From NCBI GenBank assembly GCA_963796275.1, contig CAWCKY010000006.1, positions 1,472,001-1,536,000 on the forward strand: a DNA stretch of 64,000 nt. The letters are read 5' to 3'. The stretch is from an uncultured Acidobacteriota bacterium. GTDB taxonomy: Bacteria > Acidobacteriota > Blastocatellia > RBC074. Shown one piece after another: positions 1-61,746 of this stretch (position 1 is the first letter of the stretch; the number at the start of each line of letters is the position of its first letter). Both the position numbers and the translations under genes were made by a program. The notes under the pieces were generated by a model. That model was not told the DNA's origin. It saw only the letters and a list, made by a program, of their open reading frames with translations, and did no database searches.

Positions 1-265
1 CCTGGTAAGGCATCATCCGCTTCTCCAGCACCTCTTCTTTGATCGCCTTCGCCCAGGGGCGCGATTCTTCGTAAGTCGTCAAGGGGATATCAGCCTTGAT
101 CTTCCCTACGCTGTGACACCCGAGGCAATTGCGCTGAAAGATGCGGATGATCTCCTTATTGAACATCACTTTGGTGGTGATCGGCTCGTGCGTGCTGCCG
201 GAATGAGGGAAGAGCAGAACGATGAGGGTCGTAATAAGGATTAGTGCGAACTTCTTCGGATGCAT
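1..265 (-). CDS. Exported c-type cytochrome protein, 3'-partial (runs off the window); heme domain related to the adjacent monooxygenase array
   Basis: Not in the ORF track. Manual translation: MHPKKFALILITTLIVLLFPHSGSTHEPITTKVMFNKEIIRIFQRNCLGCHS...TYEESRPWAKAIKEEVLEKRMMPYQ. Signal peptide, CxxCH, and the RPWAK.I.E.V block shared with its neighbours. Confidence 0.85.
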   Translation of the reverse strand, partial: MHPKKFALILITTLIVLLFPHSGSTHEPITTKVMFNKEIIRIFQRNCLGCHSVGKIKADIPLTTYEESRPWAKAIKEEVLEKRMMPYQ

Positions 266-294
266 AAATTGAGCAAGTGAACTTCAGCGCAATA

Positions 295-356
295 ATCACA
301 AAAAGGACTAAAACCACAAAAAGTCCGTTTGTGATTTTGTCCTTTTTGCGATTTTA
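295..356. repeat. Intergenic imperfect inverted repeat built from short A-rich/T-rich units
   Basis: ATCACAAAAAGGACTAAAACCACAAA ... TTTGTGATTTTGTCCTTTTTGCGAT. Confidence 0.6.
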
Positions 357-362
357 TGTTGA

Positions 363-1631
363 TCACTCCGCTGCTTTCTCAGCCGGTTTCGATCCAGTAA
401 CGTTATAATAGCTCAACCAGCCGATCATCATCTCCTCCCACGTCTGCTCGCCCCACTTAACATCCTTGGAAGGGTCAGGATTGAATCTGTTGTTGGACGA
501 ATTGTCGAAGTGTGCGACGCATTCGATCTTCGTGCCTTTCGGGATCACAATCGGTTCCTTCGGAACGTAATATGTCTGCCAGTTGAAATCATAGTTCGGC
601 ACATTGAGCAGTACTTTCGATGTCCCGTCAGCGTAGATCGCCTTGATTTCGAAATCTTTGCCGCGCAGATGCATATGAGGCATGAGGTTCGAGAGTTGCA
701 CGTCCTCCTTGAACGTATAGGTGGATTTAACCTCATGGCTCGCGGCGCCGGCCGGGATAACAAAAGTCGTGTTGAGGACCGGGCGGGTGAATATTTGATG
801 CTTCGGCGGCTCTTTCGCGTATTTCAGACCGACCGTCGTGATATCTTTTGTCGCCGTTCCATTGGGAGTGTAATGCATCTGGAAGATTAGAGTCGCGCCG
901 GCCGGAACCTTTTTCGCCGTTCCGGGCCGATAGATCGCCGGTTGTTCGCCGGGCGCTGTTCCGACCAACAAATTGCTGTCGATGCGCGCCGGCGTCTTCG
1001 GGTCTTGGATGAACACGATAACGTGGTGCACGGCTGAACGGGCAGTGCTGCGAATCTCCGCCGCCGTAATCCAGCGGTCTTCTTTGAAATTGGTCGGCAC
1101 CCTGAGATAGAGGTATTTGACAACGCCGGTCGAGGGAACCGATTGCTCTGGGATTGAGAAGGTTTCATCCGGCTTACCGATACCCCATCCTTCGACAAAT
1201 TTCGGCGCGGGGGGCAGAAGCTTCGGATCGCCCTCCTTTGCTCCCCCGTCGACCCAGGAGACTATGGTGTCTATCTCGCTCTGCGATAAGCGGCGATCAT
1301 TAAGCCATTCGCCGTGGTTCGGGTCGGCGTGCCAGGGCGGCATTTCGCGCGAGACCACCTTTTCGCGAATCGATTTCGCCCAGGGACGGGCATCTTTGTA
1401 GCTCATTAACGAAAACGGCCCGATCTCGCCCGCCCGGTGGCACTCGGCGCAGTTCTTGAATAAGATCGGCGCGACATCTTTAGAAAAAGTAATATTCTTC
1501 GCCGCCGTCTTATCGCGCCCGGATTCGCCAAAGGATGCTTTGCCATCAGCTGTAGCGAATGGTTGTAAAAATAGACAAAGGGGGCCCAATATGAGAATGG
1601 CGGCAGTGACAATCAACTTTTTTTTCATCAT
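363..1631 (-). CDS. Heme c / type II copper monooxygenase (PHM-like) fusion protein, exported
   Basis: Signal peptide, CAECH, REMPPW, VHH, QMHY, MPHMHLRG, WEEMM; AGAGG upstream. Confidence 0.8.
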   Translation of the reverse strand: MMKKKLIVTAAILILGPLCLFLQPFATADGKASFGESGRDKTAAKNITFSKDVAPILFKNCAECHRAGEIGPFSLMSYKDARPWAKSIREKVVSREMPPWHADPNHGEWLNDRRLSQSEIDTIVSWVDGGAKEGDPKLLPPAPKFVEGWGIGKPDETFSIPEQSVPSTGVVKYLYLRVPTNFKEDRWITAAEIRSTARSAVHHVIVFIQDPKTPARIDSNLLVGTAPGEQPAIYRPGTAKKVPAGATLIFQMHYTPNGTATKDITTVGLKYAKEPPKHQIFTRPVLNTTFVIPAGAASHEVKSTYTFKEDVQLSNLMPHMHLRGKDFEIKAIYADGTSKVLLNVPNYDFNWQTYYVPKEPIVIPKGTKIECVAHFDNSSNNRFNPDPSKDVKWGEQTWEEMMIGWLSYYNVTGSKPAEKAAE

Positions 1632-1683
1632 CTATACCTCTTGATCTTTACTTATCGGGCACTCTCGTTCCGATCATCTTGAC

Positions 1684-1908
1684 TCAGATTGACTCAGACC
1701 GTTTATAGAGCCAGAAAGAAAAGCCTATAACTATAATGCCGATGGGGATTAAGCCTAGGCTTCTATCCCAGGACTGAACGACAGGCGGTAAAATAAGATT
1801 TTTTTGCAACAGGAGAAGGATACCGCCGAATACGGATTGCGTGAGCAACAACAACCCTGTGACGAGCAGGATGCGATTAAACATATGCAATCGATGTGAT
1901 TTACTCAT
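1684..1908 (-). CDS. Small membrane protein with two TM segments
   Basis: 74 aa, two hydrophobic stretches, GAGG upstream, same strand as the array, more AT-rich than its neighbours. Confidence 0.55.
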   Translation of the reverse strand: MSKSHRLHMFNRILLVTGLLLLTQSVFGGILLLLQKNLILPPVVQSWDRSLGLIPIGIIVIGFSFWLYKRSESI

Positions 1909-1923
1909 ATGTTAACCTCGAGT

Positions 1924-3636
1924 TTACCGGGGGCGCTCGCTTCCGTTTTTATCGACCTTCTTCGCCCGGATGTTTCGACGGTTCATCTCGAAAAGTAATT
2001 CGCTGACCTCGCCTCTATCATTTTTGATAAATGTCACCTGCGCATCCACGACTTTGAAGAAGAACTTCGTCTCCGATTCCGGAAATGCCTGAATCCGCGG
2101 CTGGCCGGGAGCGACGAAGAAAAGTTTATCATTTTCGCGCAGTATGGTGAATTTCGGACCCAAACCAGTCGCGTACTCGCCTGTATAAGAATCGTAAATA
2201 TTGGCATCAACCCGGGCGACGTTGCGTTCTTTCGGTTTTTCTCGAATGAAATCGATAAAGCCGACGAGCATTTCATCGTAAGTAGGTTCGCCGAAGCGAA
2301 CAGCCCGGGTAGGGTCGGGGTTGTGCTCGTTCTTCGCCGAATTGTCAAAATGCGCGGTGACCATAAACTTTGCGCCTTTGGGGACGGGGACGGGCTTATT
2401 AAGCTTGTAGAGCGTTTGCCAGTTGAAGTTGTAATCGACCGACAGCAGAGTCTCGCGACGCCCGTCCGGATATAAGACTTCAAACTTCATATCTTTTCCG
2501 CGCACGTGCATATGTGGCATGTAATTGACCAGTTGCACATCGCGCGGAAAAATATAGCAGGCTGTGGCTTCATGATTTTCAGCCCCCGGCGGAATCTTGA
2601 AGAAGAAGTTGGTCACGTCACGGGATTCGATCATATGCTCGACGGGAGCTTTGGCGAACTGCAGGCCGACTATCGTGCGGTCTTTCTCGGGTTTGCCGGT
2701 AGTCTTCGCGTAGTGCATCTGGAAGATGAAGTTCGATCCGGCCGGGACGCGTTTGGCGGTTCCCGCCGGCCAGACATCCGCGTTTCTGCCGGGAGCGTAT
2801 ACGCACAGCAACCGCGCTCCTGCATTGCCGCTGATCGCCCCTCCATTGGGGGAACTGCAGCCATCGTCAATCACCTGGGCATCCGGAGATACCCTCCTGA
2901 CCGTGCCTTCTTTTCTTAGGACGGAGCCCGCTTCGCTCTCGAAGAGCGAAGGTGCGGAGCGCGGATCGAATCGCTGTCCCCGCCGGGCTGCATTTGCTTG
3001 GGCCATCTCCAATAGTTCCGGGGACTCTATGAAGACTGCCGCGTGATGCACTATGCGCTTGTTCCCCGGGCGAAATTCGACGGCCTGTATCCATTTATCC
3101 TCGGTGAAATTGGTCGGCACGCGGAAGTAGATGTAATCATCGGCGCCCGAAGCCGCGAGCGTGTACTCCTCGGGCATGGCGAGAGTGACATCGGGTTTTC
3201 CGATCTCCCAGGTCTCGTCGAATCGGGGTGCCGGCGGCAGGTCTCGCGGGTTGCCTTCTCCCGCTCCCTGATCGATCCATGCGACGATCGTGTCGATCTC
3301 CCGTTGCGACAGGCTAGGATTGTTGGAGAAATCGCCGTAACGCGGATCGGCGCTCCAGGGCGGCATTTCGCGATTAATCACCTTCTCGCGGATAGATTTC
3401 GCCCAGGGGCGGACATCTTTGTAGCTCAGGACCGAGAAGGGAGCGATGTCATCGGGTTTGTGGCAGCTCGCGCAGCTCTTGTAGAGGATGGGCGCCACAT
3501 CTTTGCTGAAGCTCACGTGCTTGGATGTTGGCAAAAATGGCAAGAAAGGCAAGAGGGAGAAAAATGAGGCGAAAACGAAAAAGGCCTGGAATCTCCCCCT
3601 TTTGCACATGCCTATTTTTGTCTTTTTTGTTTCCAT
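1924..3636 (-). CDS. Heme c / PHM-like copper monooxygenase fusion with C-terminal DUF3471-like domain
   Basis: CASCH, REMPPW, VHH, QMHY, MPHMHVRG, DEML; tail IYDSYTGEY...FPESETKFFFK...VTF. Start placed at METKK (3636) rather than 3714 to avoid overlap with the upstream gene. Confidence 0.8.
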   Translation of the reverse strand: METKKTKIGMCKRGRFQAFFVFASFFSLLPFLPFLPTSKHVSFSKDVAPILYKSCASCHKPDDIAPFSVLSYKDVRPWAKSIREKVINREMPPWSADPRYGDFSNNPSLSQREIDTIVAWIDQGAGEGNPRDLPPAPRFDETWEIGKPDVTLAMPEEYTLAASGADDYIYFRVPTNFTEDKWIQAVEFRPGNKRIVHHAAVFIESPELLEMAQANAARRGQRFDPRSAPSLFESEAGSVLRKEGTVRRVSPDAQVIDDGCSSPNGGAISGNAGARLLCVYAPGRNADVWPAGTAKRVPAGSNFIFQMHYAKTTGKPEKDRTIVGLQFAKAPVEHMIESRDVTNFFFKIPPGAENHEATACYIFPRDVQLVNYMPHMHVRGKDMKFEVLYPDGRRETLLSVDYNFNWQTLYKLNKPVPVPKGAKFMVTAHFDNSAKNEHNPDPTRAVRFGEPTYDEMLVGFIDFIREKPKERNVARVDANIYDSYTGEYATGLGPKFTILRENDKLFFVAPGQPRIQAFPESETKFFFKVVDAQVTFIKNDRGEVSELLFEMNRRNIRAKKVDKNGSERPR

Positions 3637-3661
3637 CACAACTTCTCTCAGGCGGCTTAAT

Positions 3662-5056
3662 TCATCGCCTCGCCGTCGAGGCCTTCGCTGATTTGCCATC
3701 GATCGTGTACTCAATCATGCCGACCATCATCTCATCATAGGTCGGATCGCCGAATCGGACGGACTGAGAAGGATCCGGGTTGTATTTATTCTTGCTCGAA
3801 TTGTCGAAATAACCGGTGACGAGTATCTTCGTTCCTTTGGGTATCGGGATCGGCTTCGCGGTATAGTAGACCGTCTGCCACGAGAAACTGTAGTTCGGCA
3901 CATTGAGCAGGACTTCGGTTCGGCCATCCGGGTAGATCGCCTTGAAATCCATCGCCACGCCGCGCAAGTGCATGTGCGGCATTAAATTTACGATCTCTAT
4001 ATCGTCTTTCACCGTCCAGCAAGCGGTCGTGCGATGCCGCTCGGCGCCTGGCGGAATCATGAAGTAGCCGTTGGCGATGCTCCTGGTTAAGAGTTTTTTC
4101 CCGCTCGGATTTTTGGCGAAGATCAAACCGACGCTGGAACGGTCTTTTTGCACCGATCCCGCGGACTTCGAGTAATGTAATTGGAGGAATATCTTTGACC
4201 CGGCGGGAATCTTTTTGATCATACCCGGTTCCAGGACCGTCTGGTTCATCCCCGGGGCATATCCCGTCAGATACGTTACATCTCCCTCGTCCCCGCCCCC
4301 GTCTCTCCTGTCGCCCTGTCCCCCATTCGGCAACGAGCACCCGTCGTCATAAATGGGAGCTTCCCTTCTGGTTCGCCGCAGAAACCCGTCGTTGTAACGG
4401 ACGGTCTCTTCACCTTTCTGCGTGCTCTCTACTTTGGCCGGCTTCGGACCCGGTTTGGCGGGTTCGGCCGGCGGCTGAATGATGGCCGCGATGTGATGCA
4501 CTATCTTGCGATTGCCGGGGCGCGCCTCAGCCAACTGCACATACTTATCTTCCGTGAATTTGGGATCGATCTGGAAGTATCGATACTCATCCGGCCCGCT
4601 GGCTTCGAGCGTGAACTCCTCGGGCATCGTCAAAACGATATCAGGCTTGCCGATCGTCCAGCCATCGGCGAACTCAGGCTGAGGCGGCAAATCTTTCTCA
4701 TCGCCTTCGGGCGCGCCCTGGTCCACCCAGGCGACTATCGCATCGATCTCCTTTTGCTCTAAACGGCGATCGTTCGCCCATTGGCCGGTATGCGGATCGG
4801 CATGCCAGGGCGGCATTTCACGGCTCAAGACTTTTTCCCGAATCGATTTGGCCCAGGGCCGCGCATCTTTGTAGCTCAAAGTCGAGAATGGCGCGTTCTC
4901 ACCCGATCGATGGCACTCGGCGCAATTCTTGAAGAAGAGCGGGGCGATGTCTTTGTTGAATGTCACGCCGTGCGCCCCCTGGCTTGTCGGCATCGACCAA
5001 AGCAAGAGCGCCGCGACGCTGGCCAGAGAAATGACGGTCGTGTGAACAATTTTCAT
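3662..5056 (-). CDS. Heme c / PHM-like copper monooxygenase fusion protein, exported
   Basis: Signal peptide, CAECH, REMPPW, VHH, QLHY, MPHMHLRG, DEMM. Confidence 0.8.
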   Translation of the reverse strand: MKIVHTTVISLASVAALLLWSMPTSQGAHGVTFNKDIAPLFFKNCAECHRSGENAPFSTLSYKDARPWAKSIREKVLSREMPPWHADPHTGQWANDRRLEQKEIDAIVAWVDQGAPEGDEKDLPPQPEFADGWTIGKPDIVLTMPEEFTLEASGPDEYRYFQIDPKFTEDKYVQLAEARPGNRKIVHHIAAIIQPPAEPAKPGPKPAKVESTQKGEETVRYNDGFLRRTRREAPIYDDGCSLPNGGQGDRRDGGGDEGDVTYLTGYAPGMNQTVLEPGMIKKIPAGSKIFLQLHYSKSAGSVQKDRSSVGLIFAKNPSGKKLLTRSIANGYFMIPPGAERHRTTACWTVKDDIEIVNLMPHMHLRGVAMDFKAIYPDGRTEVLLNVPNYSFSWQTVYYTAKPIPIPKGTKILVTGYFDNSSKNKYNPDPSQSVRFGDPTYDEMMVGMIEYTIDGKSAKASTARR

Positions 5057-5172
5057 TTATTTCACCTTTTTCACTGAGCCGCCGGAGAGAGGATCAGCTC
5101 AAACAGATATATCTCTTTCCACTCTCCGAGTCTTTTTGTGCTTCGATGGTTAGATTCGTAATTAAAGTTTCG

Positions 5173-6849
5173 TCATTGCCCGACCTGCCGGGCAGCTGCC
5201 GTCTCCTTGACTCTCTTCACGCGCGTGGTGCGCCCGCCCTCCAGCAGAGCTTCGGATACCTCGCCTTTGTCATCCAGGATGAAGGTGAGGTCTACATCGC
5301 TGCCGCGCATGAAGAACTTCGTTTCGGACTGCGGCAGAAATTCCATCTTCGATTGCAGCGGGACCTGTATGATCAGGGAATTGCCGTTTCGCGTGACGGT
5401 GGCGAAGATATTCGGACTCACCTCGTACTTGCCGGTATATTTGTCCAGTATCTTAGCTTCGACATGTGCCACTGCGGGCGCCTCCGCGACGGAGTCCATG
5501 AAACCGAGCATCATCTCATCGTAGGTCGGCTCGCCATAACGCACTTCCTTCGACGGGTCCGGGTTGAATCGGTTCTTCGCGGAATTGTCGAAATAGGCCG
5601 TGACCATCAGCTTACTCCCTTTGGGCAGTCGCTTGGGCTCCTTCAAAATATAGTTGGTCTGCCACGCGAATTCGTAGTTGGGAACATTGATCAGCGTCTC
5701 CGATTTCCCATCCGGGTAGAAGACTTTATACTCCATTGCTTTGCCGCGCAGGTGCATATGCGGCATGAGGCCGTAGATGATCGTATCGCGGCGCAGCGTG
5801 CGGCAGGCGGTTACGCGGTGATTCTCTGCGCCCGCCGGAATCTTGAAGAAAATATTGCCGATCGAGTTGGTAATGACGATCTTCTGAGGCGGCTCCTTGG
5901 CGAAGATCAGTCCCACCATCGACCGATCTTTTTCGACGGCATCGCTCCCCAGCGTCTGATTGGAATAGTGAATCTGGAACCGAATAATCGAGCCGGCCGG
6001 AATTTTCCGTGCGATCCCGGGCTCGAAGACATCCGCGTTTCTCCCCGGAGCATAGCCAGTCAGAATGCTCTGATTTTCGCCGCCGCGTGCGGCACTGGAT
6101 GATCCGCAGGCGTCATCGACCACCGGTTGATCGGGTTTCACGCGCAGCAGATATCCATCGCGATAAAACGGCGAGTTCTTGAGCAACATCTCCATCGCTT
6201 TATATCGCTGATCGGTGGTCATCTTAGCCATATTAGGCGAGCCGGGCGGGATGATGAATGCGAGGATATGATGGACGATCTTGCGATTCCCGGGCCGCGC
6301 CTCGACATTCGATACATACTTGTCCTCGGTAAATTTCGGATCGATGTCGAAATATTGATACTCATCGACGCCGGCCTTGTAGGTGTACTCCTCGGGGACC
6401 TGAACGACCATATCCGGTTGGCCGATATTCCAGCCGTTCGCGTATTTGGGAGCAGGCGGAAGGTCCTTTGCGTCTCCTTCCTTGGCACCGCCGTCCACCC
6501 AGGCGATGATCGTATCGATCTCTTTTTGCGAAAGGGAGCGGTTATTTTTAAATTCACCGTGAGAATCCGCATGCCAGGGCGGCATCTGCCGATTCAACAC
6601 CTTCTCGCGGATGGATTTCGCCCACGGCCTCACGTCCCTGAAACTCAAGGCCGAGAAGGGCGCGCCTTCACCAGGGCGATGGCACTCAAGGCAGTTCTGG
6701 AAAAATATGGGAGCGACATCTTTGGTGAATGTAATATCAGTCTTGGCCGTCTTTTCGTCATATGCATTGCCGGTCTCGCTCATGAAATAAAATGCAATTA
6801 AACACATGACGGCTGCTAAGGACAGGTAATAGGAACGTTTGATAGGCAT
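5173..6849 (-). CDS. Heme c / PHM-like copper monooxygenase fusion with C-terminal DUF3471-like domain
   Basis: Signal peptide, CLECH, RQMPPW, VHH, QIHY, MPHMHLRG, DEMM; tail LDKYTGKY...PQSETKFF; GAGGAG RBS. Confidence 0.8.
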   Translation of the reverse strand: MPIKRSYYLSLAAVMCLIAFYFMSETGNAYDEKTAKTDITFTKDVAPIFFQNCLECHRPGEGAPFSALSFRDVRPWAKSIREKVLNRQMPPWHADSHGEFKNNRSLSQKEIDTIIAWVDGGAKEGDAKDLPPAPKYANGWNIGQPDMVVQVPEEYTYKAGVDEYQYFDIDPKFTEDKYVSNVEARPGNRKIVHHILAFIIPPGSPNMAKMTTDQRYKAMEMLLKNSPFYRDGYLLRVKPDQPVVDDACGSSSAARGGENQSILTGYAPGRNADVFEPGIARKIPAGSIIRFQIHYSNQTLGSDAVEKDRSMVGLIFAKEPPQKIVITNSIGNIFFKIPAGAENHRVTACRTLRRDTIIYGLMPHMHLRGKAMEYKVFYPDGKSETLINVPNYEFAWQTNYILKEPKRLPKGSKLMVTAYFDNSAKNRFNPDPSKEVRYGEPTYDEMMLGFMDSVAEAPAVAHVEAKILDKYTGKYEVSPNIFATVTRNGNSLIIQVPLQSKMEFLPQSETKFFMRGSDVDLTFILDDKGEVSEALLEGGRTTRVKRVKETAAARQVGQ

Positions 6850-6908
6850 AATTACTTCTCCTCGCTGATCGGTTGAGTACCAGATTGTTTGTTTATGACC
6901 TCGCCGCT

Positions 6909-6938
6909 AATCTACGGGTAAAAGCTGCGCCATGTCAA
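6909..6938 (-). promoter_or_regulatory. Putative sigma70 promoter for the monooxygenase array
   Basis: Minus strand TTGACA-18 nt-TAGATT, about 60 nt upstream of the 6849 start. Confidence 0.55.
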
Positions 6939-7012
6939 GCTCAATAAACCTCCAGTTTATCCAATCATTTCAATAATATCGCGCCGTTACGCCGCCTTAT
7001 ATCTGTAATTGA

Positions 7013-7060
7013 TTGACCGGTCGGACAATAGTCGAATCGAGACTGAATGAGCGTTCAGTC
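7013..7060. promoter_or_regulatory. Two TetR-operator-like palindromes
   Basis: TTGACCGGTCGGACAA (7013-7028) and GACTGAA-TGAGCG-TTCAGTC (7041-7060) in the divergent intergenic region. Confidence 0.5.
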
Positions 7061-7273
7061 ATTTATTTTTATAGCTCAAGAATCTGGATCTGGAGAGCAA
7101 AGTAAGTCGTAACGCGAGAAGCGACCCGAGTAGAGCTTACCGCGTTTGCGGACGGTGTGGATAAATTCCAAGAGACCGAGATAGAGCGGTAATTCTTTCC
7201 CATGTCGGTTCGCCGGTTAACGCGTTATAATTTCTATGTATTACCTGCGGTCAGCCAAACAAATGGGAGGGGG

Positions 7274-7855
7274 ATGATTCCTGTGCCACAGGATGTAACT
7301 CAGCTATTGGCAGATTGGAGCAACGGCGATCAGACAGCGCTCGATAAACTGCTGCCGCTGGTCAACGCCGAGTTGCGGCAACTTGCCAGGCGCTATATGC
7401 GCCGCGAAAATCCGGGCCACACTCTGCAAACTTCGGCGCTGGTCAATGAAGCTTATCTGCGACTGATAGATCAAAAGAGCGTGCACTGGCAGAACCGCGC
7501 TCACTTCTTCGGGATCGCGGCGAAGCTGATGCGGCGTATTCTGATCGATCACGCGCGCAGCCGTCATTACGCGAAGCGCGGCGGCGGAGCGCTGAAGGTT
7601 TCGCTCGACGAAGCCGACGCCGTGACCGAGCCGCGGGCCGCCGAACTGCTCGCGGTCGACGAGGCGCTCGAGCAACTGACTGCGATGGACGCGCGCAAAG
7701 GCCGCATCGTCGAGTTGCGTTTTTTCGGTGGGCTGAGTCTGGCAGAGACAGCGGAAGTATTGGGCATTTCATCACCTACGGTGCAGCGCGAGTGGCGGGC
7801 GGCCAAAGCGTGGCTGCGACGGATCTTGTCGGAGGGCAAAGTTGATGACGCCTGA
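7274..7855 (+). CDS. ECF sigma factor of the kinase-associated (TIGR02999-like) type
   Basis: [13 protein letters not shown]...[16 protein letters not shown]...[22 protein letters not shown]...[10 protein letters not shown]...[12 protein letters not shown]; GGGAGG before the ATG at 7274. Confidence 0.92.
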
Positions 7856-10628
7856 GCGGTTTAGGCAAGTCGAAGCGATATTCCACTCGGCCCTCGAGCG
7901 CGCGCCTGGGGAGCGCTCGAGTTATCTAGATCAAGCTTGTGCCGGGGATGATGCGTTGCGCCGCGAGGTCGAACTGCTGATTGTCGCCGACGAGCGGGCC
8001 GGAAGCTTGATTGAACTCCCGGCTTATCAGCTCGCTGCCCCGATGCTCGCTGAGGATGGTTCGCGCTCGCTCATCGGTAAGAGCATCGGCCATTATCGAA
8101 TCATCTCTCTCCTGGGTAGGGGCGGGATGGGCGAGGTCTACCGCGCACACGACACCCGGCTGGGCCGCGAGGTCGCGATCAAAGTCCTGCTTCGCGAATA
8201 TTCCGTCGATGCCGACCGCTTGCGCCGCTTCGAGCAGGAGGCGCGCGTCGTCGGGAGGCTAAATCATCCGAATATCCTGACGATCTATGACATCGGCACT
8301 TACGGCGGCCCACCCTATCTGGTCGCCGAACTGCTCGAGGGCGCGACGCTGCGTGAGCAACTGCGCGGAGCGGCGTTGCCGTTGCGCCGGGCATCGGACT
8401 ATGCCGTGCAGATAGCGCGCGGGCTGGCGGCGGCGCACGATAAAGGGATCGTGCATCGCGACTTGAAGCCGGAGAATATCTTCGTCACCAAAGATGGGCG
8501 ACTCAAGATTCTCGACTTCGGGCTGGCGAAATTAAGGCGAAAGCTGCCTGGCGGCGCGGTTGACACAGGCGCCCCGACCCATCCATTGGGTACCGCTCCC
8601 GGCGTGGTGATGGGAACTGTCGGCTATATGTCGCCGGAGCAGGTGCGCGCCGAGGAAGTGGATCATCGCTCGGACATCTTCGCCTTCGGAGCGATTCTCT
8701 ACGAGATGCTCGCGGGACAGCGGGCGTTTGGCGGCGCGTCGACGGTTGAGACGATGAACGCAATCCTGAAAGAGGAGCCGCCGGAGCTGTCGCAGACGGA
8801 CCCCAAAGTCGTCCCCGCGCTTGAGCGCGTGATGCGGCGCTGCTTGGAGAAGAGCGCGGAGGAACGCTTCCAATCGGCGCGCGACCTGGCCTTTGCCCTG
8901 GAAGCATTGTCAGGCGTCTCTGCTCCGAGCACGGTTGCTCAGGCGGTTGAGCCTGCGCGAGCGGGACGGCGCCTATGGCTCTGGCCCGCTAGCGCATTGA
9001 TGATAGTCGCGGTCGCCCTGGCGTCATTCTTCGTCGGCAAGCGGGCGGAAAAGGCGCCGCCTGAGTTTCAGCGGCTCACTTTCCGCCGCGGGGTGATCGG
9101 GGAAGCGAGATTTGCCCCCGACAGCCAAACGATCATTTATAGCGCAATGTGGCAGGGCGATCAGCGCCAACTCTACTCGACCCGTCCGGAAAGCCCGGAG
9201 TCACGCCCGCTCGGACAGCCAGACGCCGACCCCCTGGCGATCTCAGCTTCGGGCGAGTTGGCTATCGCGCTCCACCCTTTTCGCCTCGGCTTTGGCCTCA
9301 AGGGGACACTGGCCCAAATGCCGATTACAGGTAGCGCGCCCCGCCCAGTTCTCCCAGATGTTTTCGCTGCTGATTGGGCTTCAGACGGAAGGCGGCTCGC
9401 TATTGCCCGTGAGGTTAACGGGCGAAACCGGATCGAATTCCCGATCGGAACAGTTCTCTATGAGACAGCCGGCACAATCTTCCGACTGCGCATCTCGCCG
9501 AAAGAGGATTGGATCGCCTTCACGGAGGACAGTTCCATTGCGGTGATTGACATCGCGCGCCGGAAGAAGATTCTCTCAAGCGGGTGGAATAGCACAAATG
9601 GTATCGCCTGGTCTCCCAGCGGTGATGAGGTCTGGTTCACTGCTGCCGAAGTGGGTTACAACGCTGCCCTCTATGCCGTCACGCACGCGGGTCAGCAACG
9701 CCTGGTGGCGCGCGTGCCGCATGGGATAAGACTTTTCGATATCTCCCGCGACGGGCGAGTCCTGCTGGTGAGCTATCATGTCAGTAAAGGGATCATGTGC
9801 CTTGCCCCAGGCGAAACACATGAGCGAGATTTGTCCTGGCTCGGGTGGGGACACATGGCCGACATTTCAGCCGATGGAAAACTGCTCCTCTTCACTGAGG
9901 CCGGGGAAGGAGGTGGAGCAGGCCAGGCGGTCTATTTGCGGGCGACCGACGGCTCGCCGGCTATCCGGCTCGGCGAGGGTGAGGCAAACGCTCTCTCACC
10001 AGATGGAAAATGGGCGCTCACGATTCGCCGCATCCGTTCGTCATCGCAGGTGATCTCACAAGTAATGCTGCTGCCAATCGGGACGGGGGAATCAAAAACG
10101 CTGACCGATGACCAGATCAACTGGCAGAGTGCGAGATGGTTTCCAGACGGGAGGCGCATTCTCCTGAACGGCAACGAACAGGAACGGGGAGTGCGCGGCT
10201 ATATCCTGGAACTCGAAGGCGGGAAGCCGCGTCCGATCACGCCAGAAGGGATAGCCGGGAGGCTCGTTTCACCTGATGGTCGATGGTTGATTACCTCAGA
10301 TGCCCTACAAAAGCTCTCTCTCTTCCCTCTAGGTGGGGAGGAGCCACATCCGGTTCCCGGTCAGGCCGATGGAGATGAGCCGATCCAATGGAGCGCCGAC
10401 GGACGGTCAATTTACGTGCGTCAGGACAGACAGGATCTCAACACCATGAGAATCTATCGGCTTGAGCTTTCGACCGGGCGCAGAGAATTACGGAAAGAAT
10501 ATATCCCCGCCGATCCATCGCGAACTGCTCGATTGCTCCCGCTGGCGCTGGCACCTGATGGGAAATCGTATGCCTATACCTACGCGCGTAACTTTTTTGA
10601 TCTTTATCTGGTCAAGGGATTGCGGTGA
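7845..10628 (+). CDS. Membrane Ser/Thr protein kinase with extracytoplasmic TolB/PD40-like beta-propeller
   Basis: [33 protein letters not shown]; TM near aa 380-400; repeated W/FSPDG motifs; overlaps the sigma gene stop. Confidence 0.92.
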
Positions 10629-36983: not shown

Positions 36984-37093
36984 GAATCTCGGCAATTCCA
37001 CATTTCAACCACAAACGCCGCTGAAATGTGACATCGTCGTGGTATTCGCACACGACCTTTCTTAATGGTGGTGTTCGGCTTATCATCTCGCCC

Positions 37094-37504
37094 ATGAACA
37101 ACGAGCTACAATCGAAAGTGCCATATCGCGTCAGCGAACCTCACTACTCAGTCGCCCCGCAGATGGTTACGACCGCATTTGAACTCCCTGGCTATCGGAT
37201 CAGGCGGAACCTCGGAGTAGTGCGCGGCATCGTCGTCCGCTCCCGCTCGATTGTGGCGAACATCGGCGCTTCACTGCAGACGCTCATCGGCGGCAACATC
37301 ACAGCCTGGACTCGTTTGTGTGAGGAGACGCGGGCTGAAGCGTTTGAAATCATGGTGCAGCACGCAACGGAGGTCGGTGCGAATGCCATTATCGGCGCCC
37401 GATATGACGCGACCGAGATCGCCACGGGGGCGACGGAGGTGCTGGCTTATGGGACCGCGGTGATCGTTGAGCCGCTGGAAGAGAACAGCTTATATAAAAC
37501 CTGA
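37094..37504 (+). CDS. YbjQ (UPF0145) family protein
   Basis: LGVVRGIVVRSRS...GANAIIGARYD...EVLAYGTAV. Confidence 0.9.
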   Translation: MNNELQSKVPYRVSEPHYSVAPQMVTTAFELPGYRIRRNLGVVRGIVVRSRSIVANIGASLQTLIGGNITAWTRLCEETRAEAFEIMVQHATEVGANAIIGARYDATEIATGATEVLAYGTAVIVEPLEENSLYKT

Positions 37505-43389: not shown

Positions 43390-44775
43390 ATGAGCGAAGC
43401 GGGAAGGAAACAGGCAATATATGCATTGGCGGTGTTGTTTGCGATCAATGCGATGAATTTCTACGATCGCCAGATCATCGCATCGGTGAGTAAACCGATA
43501 ATCGATGAATGGCAGCTCAGCGATACAGCGCTGGGCGGAATCGGCACGGCATTCATCATAATTTACGCTATTGTCGGTTTGCCGCTCGGAGTCTGGGCTG
43601 ATCGGGGATCGAGGACAAAGCTGCTGTCATTTTCGGTATCTATCTGGAGTTTATTTACGGCAGCGTCGGGTCTGGCCTGGGGTTTTTGGTCGATGTTCTT
43701 GGCGCGGTTGGGAGTGGGGGTCGGAGAAGCGGGCTGCTCTCCCGCCGCCAATTCCCTGATCGGGGATCTCTATCCGGCCAACAAGCGCGGGCGGGCGATC
43801 GCCTTCTTTATGCTCGGGCTGCCGATCGGAATATTCCTCAGCAACATGCTCAGCGGGCTGATCGCTCAAGCGTATGGCTGGCGCTGGACATTTCTTATGG
43901 CGACGATCCCCGGCTTGATCCTCGCGTTCTTTGCGCTGCGGATAAAGGAGCCGGCGCGCGGTGCGAATGAGGTTATCAGGCGCGAGAACACACCGCACAA
44001 GCTATCTTCCTACTTGCGTGTGCTGACGATACCCACCATGTGGTGGATCATCATTTCGGGCGCGCTCCATAACTTCAATGCGTATACGGTGAACTCATTC
44101 ATTCCTCTTTATCTCGGACGCCATCACGGGCTCGATATTTTGCAGGCGAATAAGATCGCCGCTTTCGTGCTCGGCGCGGTGGGTGTCATCGGGTTGCTAG
44201 CCGGCGGATTGGCTGCCGATTGGGCTCGGAGGAAGAGCCCACGGGGACGAATGCTCGTAGCTGCCCTGGCACTATTGATCGCCACACCCTGCATATATTT
44301 GGCTATCGGACAATCCAGAGGCTCTCTCGTCCCATTTATGATTCTCATGGGATTCGGATGGATGATGATGTACGTCTATTATGTAGCGGTCTATCCGGCG
44401 ATCCAGGATGTGGTTGAGCCGAGTATGCGCGGCTCGGCGATGGCGCTCTATTTCTTCGGGATGTACCTCCTCGGCGGCGCCTACGGGACATTTATCACCG
44501 GTTACTTGAGCGACCGCTTCGCCAACCAGGCGATGATCGCTGCGGGCGCCACCGTACTTGAGCCGTTTAGGGCCATCGGCCTCCAACAGGCATTCTACAT
44601 CGTGCCGGCGGTATCGGTGGTCCTGACTCTGGTTCTCTTCGCAGGCGCGCTGACAATTGCAAGAGATGTGGAAAAACTGCAAAAATGGGTAGGCGAGGGA
44701 GCGTCCGAATCGAGGGGATTCGGGGCAACTGGTGCAACCGGGGCGACCGGGGCGACCGAAATGACCGCGGATTAG
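43390..44775 (+). CDS. MFS transporter (spinster-like)
   Basis: NFYDRQI, G.WADRGSR, RLGVGVGEA..SPAANSLIGD; about 12 TM segments. Confidence 0.92.
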   Translation: MSEAGRKQAIYALAVLFAINAMNFYDRQIIASVSKPIIDEWQLSDTALGGIGTAFIIIYAIVGLPLGVWADRGSRTKLLSFSVSIWSLFTAASGLAWGFWSMFLARLGVGVGEAGCSPAANSLIGDLYPANKRGRAIAFFMLGLPIGIFLSNMLSGLIAQAYGWRWTFLMATIPGLILAFFALRIKEPARGANEVIRRENTPHKLSSYLRVLTIPTMWWIIISGALHNFNAYTVNSFIPLYLGRHHGLDILQANKIAAFVLGAVGVIGLLAGGLAADWARRKSPRGRMLVAALALLIATPCIYLAIGQSRGSLVPFMILMGFGWMMMYVYYVAVYPAIQDVVEPSMRGSAMALYFFGMYLLGGAYGTFITGYLSDRFANQAMIAAGATVLEPFRAIGLQQAFYIVPAVSVVLTLVLFAGALTIARDVEKLQKWVGEGASESRGFGATGATGATGATEMTAD

Positions 44776-44777
44776 AT

Positions 44778-45842
44778 ATGAAAAATTACCGAAGGGATTT
44801 TTTGAAAGGTGGTCTGGCGCTGGCGGCGGCGAGCCTGCCTGTTGCCCTGGCGTTTGGGCAAGACCCGCCAGTGCCGGAGCCGGTCGTCTACCTCTGTCCT
44901 ATGCATCCGGATGTGCAGGCGAAGGTCGCAGGTAAATGCCCGAAGTGCAATATGAAGCTGGTGGGATCGCAGGGCTCGGCGGCAGGCAGCGGAGATTTCT
45001 ATATCTGTCCGATGCACCCGGACATAATATCGAACACAGCCGGAATTTGCCCGAAGTGTAATATGAAGTTGGTGAAGGGCGCACCGCCGGAGACGGGCGA
45101 TTTTATCGTGAAAATCGCAACCGTTCCGAAGTCGCCGAAAGCAGGTGAGAAGGTGAAATTCCGCTTCTCAATATTTCATCCGGCGACGGACAAACAGATA
45201 AAAGAGTTCAACATCCTGCACGACATGCCATTCCACTTTTTTATCGTGAGCCAGGATTTTGAACACTTCGATCATATCCATCCTGAGAAACAGACGGACG
45301 GAAGCTTCACGATTGATACCATTCTACCGAAAGCGGGGTACTACAAACTCTTCTGCGATTTCTTTCCCGCCGGCGGGATGCCTCAGGTGACCCACCATAA
45401 TTTGGTGACTGCAGGTTTCAGCGGCGATCTGGTCTCTTCACAGGCCAGGCTCGTGCCCGATGAGTCGCTGGCCAAAAGCATACAGGGCATGCGCGTAGAA
45501 TTGAAATTCGAGCCAGCGGCGCCGTTCTCGGGTAAACCGGCAGAGCTGCGTTATCACCTGATCGACGAAAAAACGGGCGAGCCGGTCAAGGATTTGCAGC
45601 CCTATCTGGGAGCCTGGGGCCACACGTTGATTTTGAGCGAGGATGGCACCGATTATCTGCATTCTCACCCGACCGAGATGATCCCGGAAGAGATTGACCG
45701 CAGTAATCTGAAGGGCGGGCCGAATATCGTGTTCGATACATTCTTTCCTCGTCCCGCAAATTACCGAATCTGGTCGCAGTTTCAAAGACAGAACAAAATC
45801 ATTACCGTTGCCTTTACGGTCTCTGTGCCGCGATTGCGGTGA
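44778..45842 (+). CDS. Tat-exported protein with two heavy-metal-binding (CPMH) motifs and His-rich Ig-like domains
   Basis: YRRDFLK Tat motif; Y.CPMHP...G.CPKCNMKLV x2; FHFF...HFDHIHP; YLGAWGH...YLHSHP. Confidence 0.82.
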   Translation: MKNYRRDFLKGGLALAAASLPVALAFGQDPPVPEPVVYLCPMHPDVQAKVAGKCPKCNMKLVGSQGSAAGSGDFYICPMHPDIISNTAGICPKCNMKLVKGAPPETGDFIVKIATVPKSPKAGEKVKFRFSIFHPATDKQIKEFNILHDMPFHFFIVSQDFEHFDHIHPEKQTDGSFTIDTILPKAGYYKLFCDFFPAGGMPQVTHHNLVTAGFSGDLVSSQARLVPDESLAKSIQGMRVELKFEPAAPFSGKPAELRYHLIDEKTGEPVKDLQPYLGAWGHTLILSEDGTDYLHSHPTEMIPEEIDRSNLKGGPNIVFDTFFPRPANYRIWSQFQRQNKIITVAFTVSVPRLR

Positions 45843-46013: not shown

Positions 46014-48198
46014 ATGCGAAAGACGAGCCCTCGCATCATTACCATTCTGCTCGCCCTTATCGTCACCCCAACAACATTCGCTCAAGATAAACTGTTTACT
46101 CTAGACGATCTTTATGAGCCATCCAAGCGCATCAATTTCAGCGGCGATCCGCCGAACGGGATGATCTGGCTGGATGACAGTCACTATTTGTGGCGGGGAA
46201 ACAAAATTGATGCGCTGACCGGGCAATCCGAACCTTTCTACGATAAGGCGAAGATGCAAGTAGCGCTGGCCAAATTGCCGGCGATGAGCGCGGAGAATGC
46301 CAGACGATTGGCGGAAGGGCGACTGGAGATGAACGCGAGCCGCACGGCCGCGCTGATCAACTATGCCAACGATCTTTTCTATTATCAATTCGGCAGCGAG
46401 CAGGCGATCCGCTTGACCAATACGGCGGAAGATGAAGTAGGCGAGGAGTTCAGCCCCGATGGGCGGATGGTCAGCTTCGTCCGCAACTACAACATCTTCA
46501 TCGTCGACATAGCAACGCAGCGCGAACGGTCGCTGACGAAAGACGGCAATTCCCGGCTCTTTAATGGCCGTCTCGATTGGGTCTATCAGGAAGAGCTCTA
46601 CGGGCGCGGGAACTTTCAGGGGTACTGGTGGAGCCCGGATTCGACCAGAATCGCATATCTTCAATTGGATGAATCACCGGTGAAAGATTTCGCCATCGTC
46701 GATCACATTCCGAACCAGCAGGATCTGGAAATGTACGACTATCCGAAGGCCGGAATGCCGAATCCGTCGGTGCGTCTGGGCGTCGTCAACGCGATTGGCG
46801 GCGATACAGCATGGCTCGACTTGTTCCGCTATCAGGGAGTGGAGCCGCTGATCGTTCGCGTCGGATGGAAGCCCGACGGATCAAAAGTAATTTTCGAGAT
46901 AACAAACCGCGAGCAGAATTGGCTCGACCTGAACTTCGCCGATCCGAAATCCGGCAAAGTCGAGACCGCTTTCCGCGAGACTTCGAAAGCCTGGTTCGAA
47001 ACCGACAGCGCGAGCCTGCCGAGATGGTTGAAAGATGGATCGTTTCTCTGGCTGAGCGAGCGCGATGGGTGGAAGCATATTTATCACTATTCGCCCGATT
47101 GCAAGCTGATACGACCCGTAACCTCCGGCAAATGGGAGGTCCGCGCGCTCCACGGCTATGATGAGACAGGCGCTTGGGTCTATTTTTCCGGAACAGAGCG
47201 CAGTCCGATCGGCTCTGATGCTTATCGCATCAAACTCGATGGCTCTGGGTTGCAAAGATTGACGGAAACTCCGGGAGTCCACTCGGCCAACTTCGATCCG
47301 ACCTTTACGCGATTTATAGATTCGTGGAGCGATGCGATGACGCCTCCCCAGGTGAGACTGCACAGCATTGACGGCAAGCTCGTCCGCGCGATCTTCGAGA
47401 ATAAGGCCGATATTTTGCAGCAGTACCGGTTGAGCAAGCCCGAGTTTCTGCAGGTAAAAACGCGCGATGGGTTTTCGATGGAAGCGATGATGATCAAGCC
47501 CGTCGATTTCGATCCGAAGAAGAAATATCCGGTATTCCAGCACACCTACGCCGGCCCGCACGCACCCCAGGTGCGGAATACCTGGAACAGCGGAATGGGA
47601 AACATGTGGCACCAGCTTGCTCGCCCAGAAAGGCTACATCGTGTGGATCTGCGACAACCGCTCGGCTAGCGGGAAGGGGTTGGAGTCGGCCTGGACTATC
47701 TACAAAAACTTCGGCGAACTCGAAATGCGCGATATCGAGGACGGCGTCGCCTATTTGAAGACGTTGCCTTACGTCGACGGTTCGCGCATCGGAATCAACG
47801 GATGGAGTTTCGGGGGCTACATGACCGCTTATGCGCTGACGCACTCGAAGAGCTTTAAAATCGGCATTTCGGGCGCACCGGTGACCGACTGGCATCTTTA
47901 CGACACGATCTACACCGAGCGATATATGGGCACGCCGCAGAATAATCCGGAAGGCTATGAGAAGAGCTCCGTCGTCAAAGCCGCCAAGAATTTAAACGGA
48001 AAACTGTTGCTTATTCACGGCACAATTGACGACAATGTGCATATTCAAAACTCAATTCAGTTCATTTATGAATTGCAGAAGGCGGGCAAGCAATTCGAGC
48101 TGATGATCTATCCGAAGTCTCGGCACGGCGTATCGGACCCGAGATTACAGAGACAGATGCGCGAATTGATGTTGAACTTCATCCTGGCAAATCTATGA
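46014..48198 (+). CDS. Dipeptidyl peptidase IV-like S9B peptidase; frameshift near 47616-47618
   Basis: NGRLDWVYQEE, WWSPD, YPKAG in the first ORF; GWSFGG, HGTIDDNVH, YPKSRHG in the second. Removing one base joins them (WHQLLAQKGY). Confidence 0.9.
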
Positions 48199-49988: not shown

Positions 49989-51476
49989 ATGAAAGTGCTT
50001 CTCGTTTATCCTGAATTCCCTGATACATATTGGAGTTTTCGTCGTGCGCTCTATTTCTATAACAAGCGAGCGGTCCTGCCTCCGCTCGGCTTGCTCACCG
50101 TCTCGGCCATGCTTCCGCGCACCTGGGAGCGGCGGCTCGCCGATATGAACGTGCGGGCGCTCAAAGACTCCGAAATCAAATGGGCTGATATGGTCTTCAT
50201 CAGCGCAATGCTCATCCAGAAAGATTCGCTGCGCCGCGTCGTCGAGCGGTGCAAGGCGCTCGGGAAACGAGTAGCCGTAGGCGGACCATATGTCACCACG
50301 CTCGAAGAACAACTGACCGGAGTAGATCACGTTTTTCTGGGTGAAGCGGAGACGACCTTGCCCGAGTTCTTGCGCGACTTACAGTGCGGCGAAGCGAAGA
50401 GCGTCTATGGAGCCGGAGAGCGTCCTTCGCTCGCGCTCACGCCGCCCGCCGAATATCGTATCGCAGACCTCAAACGATACTTCGCCATGCCGGTGCAATA
50501 TTCGCGCGGCTGCCCGTTCCAATGCGAATTCTGCGACATCATTGAAATCTATGGCCGCGTCCCGCGCACCAAGACCAATGAACAGGTGCTGGCCGAGCTC
50601 GATGAATTGCTGAGACTTGGATGGCGCGGCCGAGTCTTCATCGTTGATGACAATTTCATCGGCAATAAAAAGAACGTGAAGCGGCTGCTGCCGGAATTGA
50701 CCGAATGGTCCGAGCGACACCGCCATCCCTTCGCTTTTCTGACTGAAGCGAGCGTCAACCTGGCCGATGATGACGAGCTGCTTCTCGGGATGCAGCGCGC
50801 CGGATTTCGTTCGGTTTTTCTCGGGATCGAGACGCCGATCGAAGAGAGTCTGAAAGAGACGCAGAAGCATCAGAACACGCGTAACGACCTGCTCGACTCT
50901 GTGCGCAAGATCCAGAGCTCAGGGATGGATGTCATGGCCGGTTTCATCGTAGGCTTCGACAACGATCCGGAGGATGTTTTCGAGAGGCAGATCAAATTCA
51001 TTACGGAGAGCGCGATTCCGCTGGCAATGGTGGGAATTCTGCAGGCGCTGCCCGGCACGCAGCTCTGGCGCCGGCTCGAGCGCGAAGGGCGACTGCTGGC
51101 GGAAGGCACGGGCAATATTTCGGAATGCGCGCTGACCTTTATTCCAAAGATGGACAGCGAGCGGCTGATCGAAGGTTACCAATCAATCGTCCATACCATA
51201 TACGCTCCTCGCGAATATTATCAGCGCACGCTCGATTGTCTTTCGCGCGTTGTGCATCGGATCCCGGAACCGCGCCGGAGCGATATTTTCCGTGACCTGG
51301 CGGCTCTGACGCGCGTTTTGCTCACGCTCGGCGTACGCGACGAGGGGCGCGGTGAATTTTGGCGATTCTTCCACAAGGCTTTGACCGATCATCGCGGGAG
51401 ATTTGAGCTGGCCATGCGCCTGGCGGCGATGGGTTATCACCTGCGCAAACTGTCGGAGGCCAACGGTGGTACGTGA
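49989..51476 (+). CDS. B12-binding domain radical SAM protein (DUF4070-type)
   Basis: [25 protein letters not shown] (CxxxCxxC), [17 protein letters not shown]. Confidence 0.9.
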
Positions 51477-55221: not shown

Positions 55222-56619
<1,398 letters not shown>

Positions 56620-56715
56620 GTTTTCCTCAAGAAGTTTCACCGCAAAAGTCACAAAATACAGATGATGCAAAAGGGGTCTCGTGTTCTGCGTTTTTGTGGT
56701 GGAACGCTCCTTTTT

Positions 56716-58183: not shown

Positions 58184-61471
<3,288 letters not shown>

Positions 61472-61746
61472 TGACACCTACCGGTAAGGGGACGCAATAT
61501 TTGAAATAATATTTCTTGATTTCTAGAGCGTTTGTAAGTTTATCGTCAGCTGAGTTTTTATTACAAGGTTTGAACGGCAAATATTGACGCCGTTTCGAAC
61601 AGGTAATATGGTTCTCCTTTCAACTGAGTCGGGGACACATTTAAGGGAAACAAAAAAACGAAAAGCCAAGAAGCGCAAAAAGTACAATAAAGTATCTTTT
61701 GCTCTTTATTGCCTATGCTGTTGTTCCAATTTGAAGGTTGAATCTA

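Follow-up and report, generated by a model that had tools for sequence, protein, structure and literature searches.

Genes and features at the locus

In the window analysed here, a 64,000-nucleotide stretch of contig CAWCKY010000006.1 from an uncultured, soil-type Acidobacteriota bacterium of the Blastocatellia (assembly GCA_963796275.1), a tandem array of paralogous genes was found. Their products are predicted to be exported and, in all but one member, to join a c-type cytochrome domain to a two-domain copper core of the kind known from peptidylglycine alpha-hydroxylating monooxygenase (PHM) and dopamine beta-hydroxylase (DBH). Open reading frame (ORF) calling placed four complete paralogous genes, W4, W3, W2 and W1, and the start of a fifth, W0, on the minus strand of positions 1-6849, with the array facing extracytoplasmic function (ECF) sigma factor and Ser/Thr kinase genes (7202-10628). 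The genes and their parts are as follows (aa, amino acids; L numbers denote loci).

5173-6849, minus strand: W4, first array gene, 558 aa; leader, cytochrome c domain, PHM-like two-domain core and C-terminal DUF3471
5239-5472, minus strand: DUF3471 domain of W4 (residues 460-537; Pfam 45.2 bits)
3662-5056, minus strand: W3, 464 aa; copy chosen for structure modelling
W3 residues 1-28 (approximate), minus strand: leader, assigned by eye
4673-4966, minus strand: heme domain of W3 (residues 31-128, approximate)
W3 residues 136-458 (approximate), minus strand: copper core
W3 heme ligand codons, minus strand: C45 4922-4924; C48; H49 4910-4912; M81 4814-4816
W3 CuH ligand codons, minus strand: H187/H188 4493-4498; H294 4175-4177
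W3 CuM ligand codons, minus strand: H361 3974-3976; H363 3968-3970; M443 3728-3730
1924-3636, minus strand: W2, 570 aa from ATG 3636; W4-like architecture, including C-terminal DUF3471
1924-3714, minus strand: longest ORF of W2, TTG start, 596 aa
1981-2226, minus strand: DUF3471 domain of W2 (Pfam 38.5 bits)
363-1631, minus strand: W1, 422 aa, shortest catalytic-type copy; no DUF3471
2-265, minus strand: W0, N-terminal 88 aa; last tandem gene, its ORF leaving the window at the left edge
L001:11024-12265: whole W0 gene, 413 aa; heme c domain and PHM-like body without copper ligands
51524-52840, plus strand: W6, separate paralog, about 439 aa; longest ORF from GTG 51473; all heme and copper motifs
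6909-6938, minus strand: promoter-like site upstream of W4, TTGACA-18-TAGATT, 10 of 12 consensus matches

The start of W2 is more likely ATG 3636, because TTG 3714 overlaps the end of W3. The N-termini of W1-W4 and W6, judged by eye, are basic and then hydrophobic, and residues 2-20 of W3 form a helix in the AF2 model. The site at 6909-6938 is a consensus match only, positions 1-7400 holding nine promoter-like sites against 5.3 +/- 1.8 in shuffles. For positions 1-6849, the sequencing runs listed as containing the stretch comprised no RNA run and three DNA runs, each with a small share (0.06-0.11).

Conserved heme and copper ligand motifs

The ORFs and motifs were re-read for each copy, and the description given by an earlier reading of the DNA from its sequence alone (the sequence-only reading) was recovered for four consecutive paralogs and W6, each with a leader, CxxCH, a Met in MPP, VHH, Q.HY, HMH and (D/E)EM; the array lies on the minus strand. 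The motifs are:

W1: CAECH, REMPPW, VHH, FQMHY, HMH, EEM
W2: CASCH, REMPPW, VHH, FQMHY, HMH, DEM
W3: CAECH, REMPPW, VHH, LQLHY, HMH, DEM
W4: CLECH, RQMPPW, VHH, FQIHY, HMH, DEM
W6: CEECH, REMPPF, VHH, IQVHY, HMH, DEM

This motif set is beyond chance. The statement that all ligand motifs are intact is right for W1-W4 and W6, the copies it referred to, but cannot be extended to the whole array: CxxCH and the distal Met occur in all six window copies, whereas W0 has no copper ligands. The loops differ between copies as had been noted, W2-W4 having some 70 additional aa after VHH that W1 lacks, and W2 and W4 having a C-terminal DUF3471, found by Pfam scan.

Conservation was assessed, in W3 numbering, on an alignment of 66 diverse relatives (34-71% identical, mean column identity 27%). 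M81, H187, H188 and H294 are invariant, and C45, C48, H49, H361, H363 and M443 are at least 90% conserved. Across 85 loci compared (see below), all motifs are present in 89 of 101 full-length family ORFs; nine of the others are of the W0 type, and three lack one motif by the patterns used. Eight of the twelve invariant family columns (M81, P82, A86, W110, G118, W133, P138 and D139) fall in the heme domain or the linker, which, together with the predicted template modelling score (pTM) of 0.85 for the W3 model described next, argues for a fixed heme-to-core interface.

A predicted copper core of the PHM/DBH fold

Single-sequence searches against the Protein Data Bank (PDB) sequences returned nothing useful, and no NCBIfam family model matched the window copies, the best hit being a spurious 11.8-bit match of hydrazine synthase alpha over the CxxCH region. 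Comparison with Pfam profiles, which the sequence-only reading had put forward as a check, was favourable in part: HMMER matched Cu2_monoox_C (PF03712) to all five full copies (21.6-26.5 bits), two of them over the cut-off of 23 (W3 26.5 bits, W2 23.6 bits), and cytochrome c models matched as well, but the N-domain model Cu2_monooxygen (PF01082) matched no window copy. A profile built from the 66 family sequences reached rat PHM at E 1e-10 and human DBH at E 2e-9 among the PDB sequences. In its alignment to PHM, the family's vHH falls on HH, lqmHY on LQVHY and HmHlrGk on HTHHLGK; all but one of the six copper ligands are paired in this way.

The AF2 model of W3 was of high predicted quality (pLDDT 90.3, pTM 0.85). 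Foldseek with this model ranked PHM and DBH first (E about 1e-11), and VIA-align matched it to DBH (4zel) with Z 21.3 and a root-mean-square deviation (rmsd) of 3.0 over 266 residues, and to PHM with Z 16.6-20.3 and rmsd 2.8-4.1 over 232-255 residues, model residues 136-458 lying on PHM 55-329. The next fold, PNGase F, scored a Z of at most 8.8. The W3 model thus has the two-domain beta-sandwich of the PHM/DBH family according to VIA-align.

By sequence, the His-His...His set of the CuH site is present, H187, H188 and H294 aligning with HH and LQVHY of PHM. In the His-x-His...Met set of the CuM site, H361 and H363 align with HTH of PHM, and M443 is placed by range and not by residue-level alignment: it lies inside the structurally aligned range, and the family conserves a Met some 80 residues past H.H. 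Its equation with the copper Met of PHM therefore draws on conservation, spacing and the aligned range, because a profile of the C-terminal copper domain alone matched no PDB sequence at E <= 10.

The profile E-values, Z scores of 20-21 and conservation at ten ligand positions bear out the earlier proposal of exported proteins that fuse a c-type heme domain with His/Met ligands to a two-copper core of the PHM/DBH type. As far as computation goes, the cores of W1-W4 and W6 stand as predicted PHM/DBH-type two-copper cores.

The predicted heme c domain

The Pfam model Cytochrom_C (PF00034) scored 24.9 bits on W3 and passed its cut-off of 21.3 in this copy only; Cytochrome_CBB3 scored 21.5 bits on W4. 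A model of the heme domain alone reached a pLDDT of 88.6. Compared with 48,161 chains by VIA-align, this model matched the monoheme cytochrome PccH (4rlr) best, with Z 6.6 and rmsd 2.0 over 73 residues, followed by FoxE (5mab, Z 6.3) and YhjA (9qdt, Z 5.5); the next, unrelated chain had a Z of 3.9. The family profile also matches PccH 4rlr by sequence (E 0.0028). On this modelling, monoheme cytochromes c of the PccH type come closest to the heme domain. Cytochrome c assembly genes are present in the window's own genome (PF01578, 136.5 and 114.1 bits).

W0, a member without copper ligands

W0 keeps CxxCH and the Met but lacks the copper ligands, five of the six having disappeared entirely. Its 120 nearest database homologs (53-92% identity) are all named 'hypothetical protein' and carry no precomputed Pfam domain. 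In W3 numbering, the ligand positions are kept among them as follows.

CxxCH: 119 of 120
M81: 120 of 120
H187: 64 of 120; commonest replacement Tyr (47)
H188: 0 of 120; commonest replacement Ser
H294: 23 of 120; commonest replacement Arg
H361: 0 of 120; commonest replacement Leu
H363: 0 of 120; commonest replacement Phe (118)
M443: 0 of 120; commonest replacement Ser (67)

W0 is better conserved than the catalytic copies, with a mean column identity of 56% over 39 sequences. In 118 of the 120 homologs, H[ED]P[IVL][TS] stands straight after GSA, GST or GGA, a context resembling a signal-peptidase site; cleavage there would leave His at the start of the mature protein. This residue, H26, is invariant in the 39 sequences. 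A histidine brace of the type found in lytic polysaccharide monooxygenases (LPMOs), CopC or PmoB was considered for W0 and rejected: the only other invariant His in the 39 sequences is the heme ligand, so a classical two-His brace is not supported. A complex prediction of W1 (residues 45-422) with W0 (residues 26-413) scored 0.00 in both runs and carries no weight either way. W0 is most likely an electron carrier or a non-catalytic partner of the four catalytic members, and its clade offers a natural control protein.

An old cluster of fixed gene order

Eighty-five loci were compared, eight from the window's own genome and 77 from other genomes, with ORFs called and the family marked by a hidden Markov model (HMM). 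There were 116 family ORFs in 73 of these loci, and 21 loci had two to six copies. By best-hit mapping, tandem copies elsewhere are 55-73% identical to their window counterpart versus about 45-55% to the other paralogs. The order W4-W3-W2-W1-W0 is kept in L010, L011, L013, L015, L020, L021, L031, L032, L041, L051 and L076, in part with positions absent or repeated:

L021: W4-W3-W1-W0
L010: W3-W2'-W2-W1-W0
L015: W3-W2'-W1-W0
L020: W3-W2'-W2'-W2-W1-W0
L051: W3-W2-W1-W0
L013 and L032: W4-W3-W0
L041: W4-W3-W2
L031: W4-W3-W2-W0

W1 orthologs adjoin W0 in L010, L020, L021, L051 and L076, among others. In a FastTree phylogeny of 107 rows, W0, W2 and W4 each form a single clade (SH-like support 100, 98 and 99, respectively), W3 has a support of 82, and W4 and W3 are sisters (support 99); since the groups were set by best hit, only the branch supports are independent of the group labels. 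All-against-all clustering of 1,004 ORFs from the 85 loci revealed no recurrent non-family gene beside the W4-W0 array, and the flanks vary between genomes. The largest 'neighbour' cluster (12 loci) was rejected as a partner, as it consists of antisense shadow ORFs of family genes.

The array is an old cluster of fixed order whose positions are orthologous groups, found in many Blastocatellia/Acidobacteriota genomes. It is not a recent expansion, because each position is orthologous and the order is shared across genomes. The idea that the copies had expanded for different substrates accordingly changes in one half: instead of a recent burst there are old orthologous groups in fixed order, together with a conserved copper-less end member, while the variable inserts and DUF3471 do fit differing substrates or localisation.

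The W4/W3/W0 arrays of metagenome-assembled genomes labelled Heliomicrobium/Heliobacteriaceae (Bacillota), at L014, L032 and L034, share 54-66% identity with the Blastocatellia-type genes of the window; these taxonomic labels look doubtful.

Size, spread and accessory domains of the family

An exhaustive search of 1.84 billion representatives (50%-identity clusters) gave 17,035 matches at E <= 1e-3, 10,659 at 1e-10 and 3,202 at 1e-30, and a word-indexed search gave at least 7,976. Among the matches listed, the names are 'cytochrome c' and 'mono/diheme cytochrome c family protein' and, twice, 'copper type II ascorbate-dependent monooxygenase-like'; PF03712 is already annotated automatically on most of them. 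The ESM Atlas returned only clusters of 'c-type cytochrome family protein'.

The 77 related loci are labelled Acidobacteriota (Blastocatellia, Vicinamibacterales, Bryobacterales and Thermoanaerobaculia), Planctomycetota, Nitrospirales and Armatimonas. In a genome survey with the C-domain profile (E <= 1e-10), the family turned up in 45 of the 201 Acidobacteriota genomes sampled, a count that includes the window's own genome and the unpublished G024, with copy numbers reaching at least 18, and in 53 of 151 sampled Planctomycetota genomes, mostly with one to five copies in frames of 600-700 aa. The largest expansion seen, 31 C-domain profile matches, was in a 4.3 Mb genome labelled Nitrospirales (G202, locus L060). 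The window's own 9.46 Mb genome has the family at 15 places, comprising 13 intact full-length genes, one fragment and one broken copy (C4:586117-587350, in the L004:6326-7369 region) with an internal TGA and pieces in different frames.

No study of bacterial members was found in the full-text literature, subscription journals being outside the search, and the earlier caveat that no biochemical characterisation was known stands within that scope. A table in a 2020 review has PHM and DBM under eukaryotes only (PMC7435645), and a listing in another article counts PHM among eukaryotic cuproproteins only (PMC8812541). Neither the PDB sequences nor the structures matched by profile, Foldseek and VIA-align included a bacterial PHM/DBH-type member. 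The array family is a variant of the PHM/DBH kind that domain annotation (PF03712) flags but for which no characterisation was found in the full-text literature searched.

Of 140 representatives, 61 have more than 150 residues ahead of CxxCH. When 20 long relatives, hand-picked and not random, were scanned for accessory domains, 16 had an N-terminal AhpC/TSA-Redoxin domain with a strong Pfam match. Its consensus is FLGTxCP with a single Cys, followed by a conserved GCxIGR. The active-site motifs of peroxiredoxins and TlpA-type thioredoxins are mostly missing from this domain, PxxxTxxC occurring in only 4 of 61 sequences and any CxxC in only 6 of 61. The other accessory domains in the 20 relatives are CBM48/AMPK1_CBM, esterase, GDSL, PQQ propeller, EF-hand, tetratricopeptide repeat (TPR) and an M56 membrane anchor.

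The frequency of the AhpC/TSA-Redoxin domain in the picked relatives and the displaced CxxCH would suit an enzyme linked to peroxide, with H2O2 as a co-substrate (peroxygenase-like, as debated for LPMOs) or with detoxification of reactive oxygen species as its task, the heme and the thioredoxin-fold domain managing peroxide or thiol redox. The scarcity of both cysteine motifs and the lone Cys of FLGTxCP, however, speak against it, as does the finding that no window copy has the domain, and we consider this explanation quite improbable.

Lower still do we rate the chance that the proteins are not enzymes at all and that, as exported copper-binding or electron-carrier proteins serving copper buffering, copper delivery or redox relay, they have merely kept the PHM fold. 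The W0 clade does show the fold persisting with heme and without copper ligands, and heavy-metal-associated genes occur in the window (HMBD, 44685-45842; YbjQ_1, 37028-37504) and beside one paralog (Metal_resist, L005:8968-9765). Yet two separate, fully conserved catalytic-type sites are retained in the 89 ORFs with all motifs; taken with copy numbers of 18 or more per genome and accessory domains as varied as CBM48-like, esterase and GDSL, this looks like a substrate-diversified enzyme family.

A recurring module was seen at L003:6220-13389, L006:6046-11958, L013, L019, L020, L049 and L075, consisting of one or more family genes, an Amidohydro_2 protein of about 500 aa, a VOC/glyoxalase protein, a protein of about 320 aa without a Pfam match and a PQQ dehydrogenase. 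Its make-up suggests that one subfamily may take part in a periplasmic catabolic pathway.

Proposed function

In PHM, DBH and tyramine beta-monooxygenase (TBH), two single electrons from ascorbate enter at CuH, and O2 activation and substrate hydroxylation take place at CuM. We propose that W1-W4 and W6 are, probably, heme-fed two-copper monooxygenases. Each would be an exported, periplasmic or cell-surface single chain made up of a Sec-type leader, a monoheme His/Met cytochrome c domain and a PHM/DBH two-domain core with two non-coupled coppers. Single electrons from periplasmic respiratory carriers would reach the heme domain, pass from there to the His3 site CuH (H187, H188 and H294 in W3) and on to the His2Met site CuM (H361, H363 and M443), where O2 would be activated and a C-H bond of the substrate hydroxylated. 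The fused heme would fill the role that ascorbate has in secretory granules. This reading is preferred because ascorbate is not expected in a bacterial periplasm, where its use is unlikely, and because the fused His/Met heme c is invariant across the family. The analysis shows the architecture, homology, fold, conservation of ligands, synteny and loss of copper ligands in W0; metal occupancy, the direction of electron flow, the O2 chemistry and the role of W0 are inferred.

Peptidyl-glycine is an unlikely substrate. In the alignment of PHM 'YRVHTH' with family 'lmpHmH', a Met occupies the position of the Arg two residues before the first CuM His, which we take to be the anchor of the peptide carboxylate; the feature specific to PHM is therefore missing. 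The inserts after VHH, DUF3471 on W2 and W4, and the accessory domains of relatives would fit differing substrates or localisation for each array position, with no substrate named.

Several results weigh against heme-fed monooxygenases. Cu2_monoox_C stays below its Pfam cut-off in three of the five copies (W4 22.8, W1 22.1 and W6 21.6 bits), and the silence of PF01082 in the window and of the C-terminal domain profile among PDB sequences adds to this. The fold match of the heme domain is only middling (top Z 6.6, below 8), and Foldseek on its model returned nothing at E <= 0.001 (best E 0.3), its list being mostly c6-type and other class I cytochromes. Many relatives, such as P0121, P0134 and P0135, have the extra N-terminal thioredoxin-fold domain, which the monooxygenase model does not explain. 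Finally, the fused cytochrome c could equally be an electron exit as an entry, and quinohemoprotein-type PQQ dehydrogenases lie near some paralogs.

The last point leads to an alternative with the same architecture and reversed flow, in which the copper core acts as an oxidase or dehydrogenase on its substrate and the cytochrome c passes the electrons to the respiratory chain, as in quinohemoprotein dehydrogenases. N-terminal cytochrome c modules are fused to many periplasmic catalytic domains in these phyla; in 7 of the 85 loci, PQQ dehydrogenase genes are only a few genes away from family members, and one of these dehydrogenases has its own cytochrome c domain (L006:10024-11958); and FoxE, which was deposited as a putative iron oxidase, is among the closest structural matches to the heme domain. 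The full His3 and His2Met set is nevertheless conserved, and in PHM, DBH and TBH that set serves reductive O2 activation. To our knowledge, moreover, no member of the PHM/DBH fold acts as a dehydrogenase. We regard reversed flow as unlikely.

Starting again from heme-fed monooxygenases, a bolder picture can be drawn, to which we give only a small chance as a whole: W4-W3-W2-W1-W0 could form a self-contained extracytoplasmic oxidative system on the respiratory chain, with four hydroxylases of different substrate pockets and a dedicated W0, attacking C-H bonds of low reactivity in polymers or the organic matter of soil, and with the invariant His of W0, the predicted first residue of the mature protein, as a new metal or docking site. 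Such a system may be a bacterial functional counterpart of the fungal pairs of LPMO and heme donor, and adjacent PQQ dehydrogenases could re-oxidise the alcohol product and return electrons to the hydroxylase.

The two-copper core known from animal hormone-making enzymes is also that of a very large bacterial family. If active, the family would count as a further major class of C-H hydroxylases that act outside the cytoplasm in the turnover of carbon in soil and aquatic settings, and would show the reductant problem solved without ascorbate. It would also provide a bacterial single-chain system, with W0 as a possible partner, whose heme is an optical and redox handle; with this handle, electron delivery to CuH and the long-debated transfer from CuH to CuM could be triggered and timed.

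Other features of the window

A B12-binding radical SAM gene with DUF4070 (49989-51476, plus strand) ends 4 nt inside the longest W6 ORF. This adjacency was treated as coincidental, because no gene of this kind stands beside the W6 ortholog at L034, the only ortholog locus that was found. At 46014-47669 and 47617-48198 (plus strand), a DPP-IV N-terminal domain and a Peptidase_S9 catalytic domain lie in two overlapping ORFs; the probable explanation is a single dipeptidyl peptidase gene split by a frameshift or a sequencing error. Planctomycete-type PSCyt1-PSCyt2-PSD1 cytochrome proteins and a DUF1501 partner are encoded at 55222-56670 and 58184-61477 (minus strand) and 61738-63999 (plus strand); they form a further exported family whose heme c module is N-terminal. 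Next to the broken paralog in L004 is another pair of this kind.

Comparison with known systems

With PHM, the core of PAM (1phm, 1sdw, 3mib), the family shares the two beta-sandwich domains (Z about 20, rmsd 2.8-3.5 over about 250 residues) and the HH, Q.HY and H.H ligand motifs, at an identity of only 14-18%. Different from PHM, the family is bacterial, leader-exported and fused to a c-type heme domain, and has Met for the carboxylate-anchor Arg. Human DBH (4zel), the best structural match to the W3 model, resembles it further in placing an extra N-terminal domain on the common core. This domain is a DOMON domain without covalent heme in DBH, whereas it is a CxxCH cytochrome c in the family; and where DBH has a C-terminal dimerisation domain, W2 and W4 have DUF3471 instead.

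The heme domain is closest to Geobacter PccH (4rlr), FoxE (5mab) and the N-terminal heme domain of YhjA (9qdt), with 18-23% identity. These are free-standing or multi-heme redox proteins, while the family heme domain is a module of a predicted copper enzyme. A heme module also feeds a mononuclear copper in cytochrome c-fused copper nitrite reductases and in LPMOs served by cellobiose dehydrogenase or CYBDOM donors. By general description, these tethered heme-to-copper enzymes share a design idea with the family, but their copper folds (cupredoxin and LPMO) and their chemistry differ from those predicted here.

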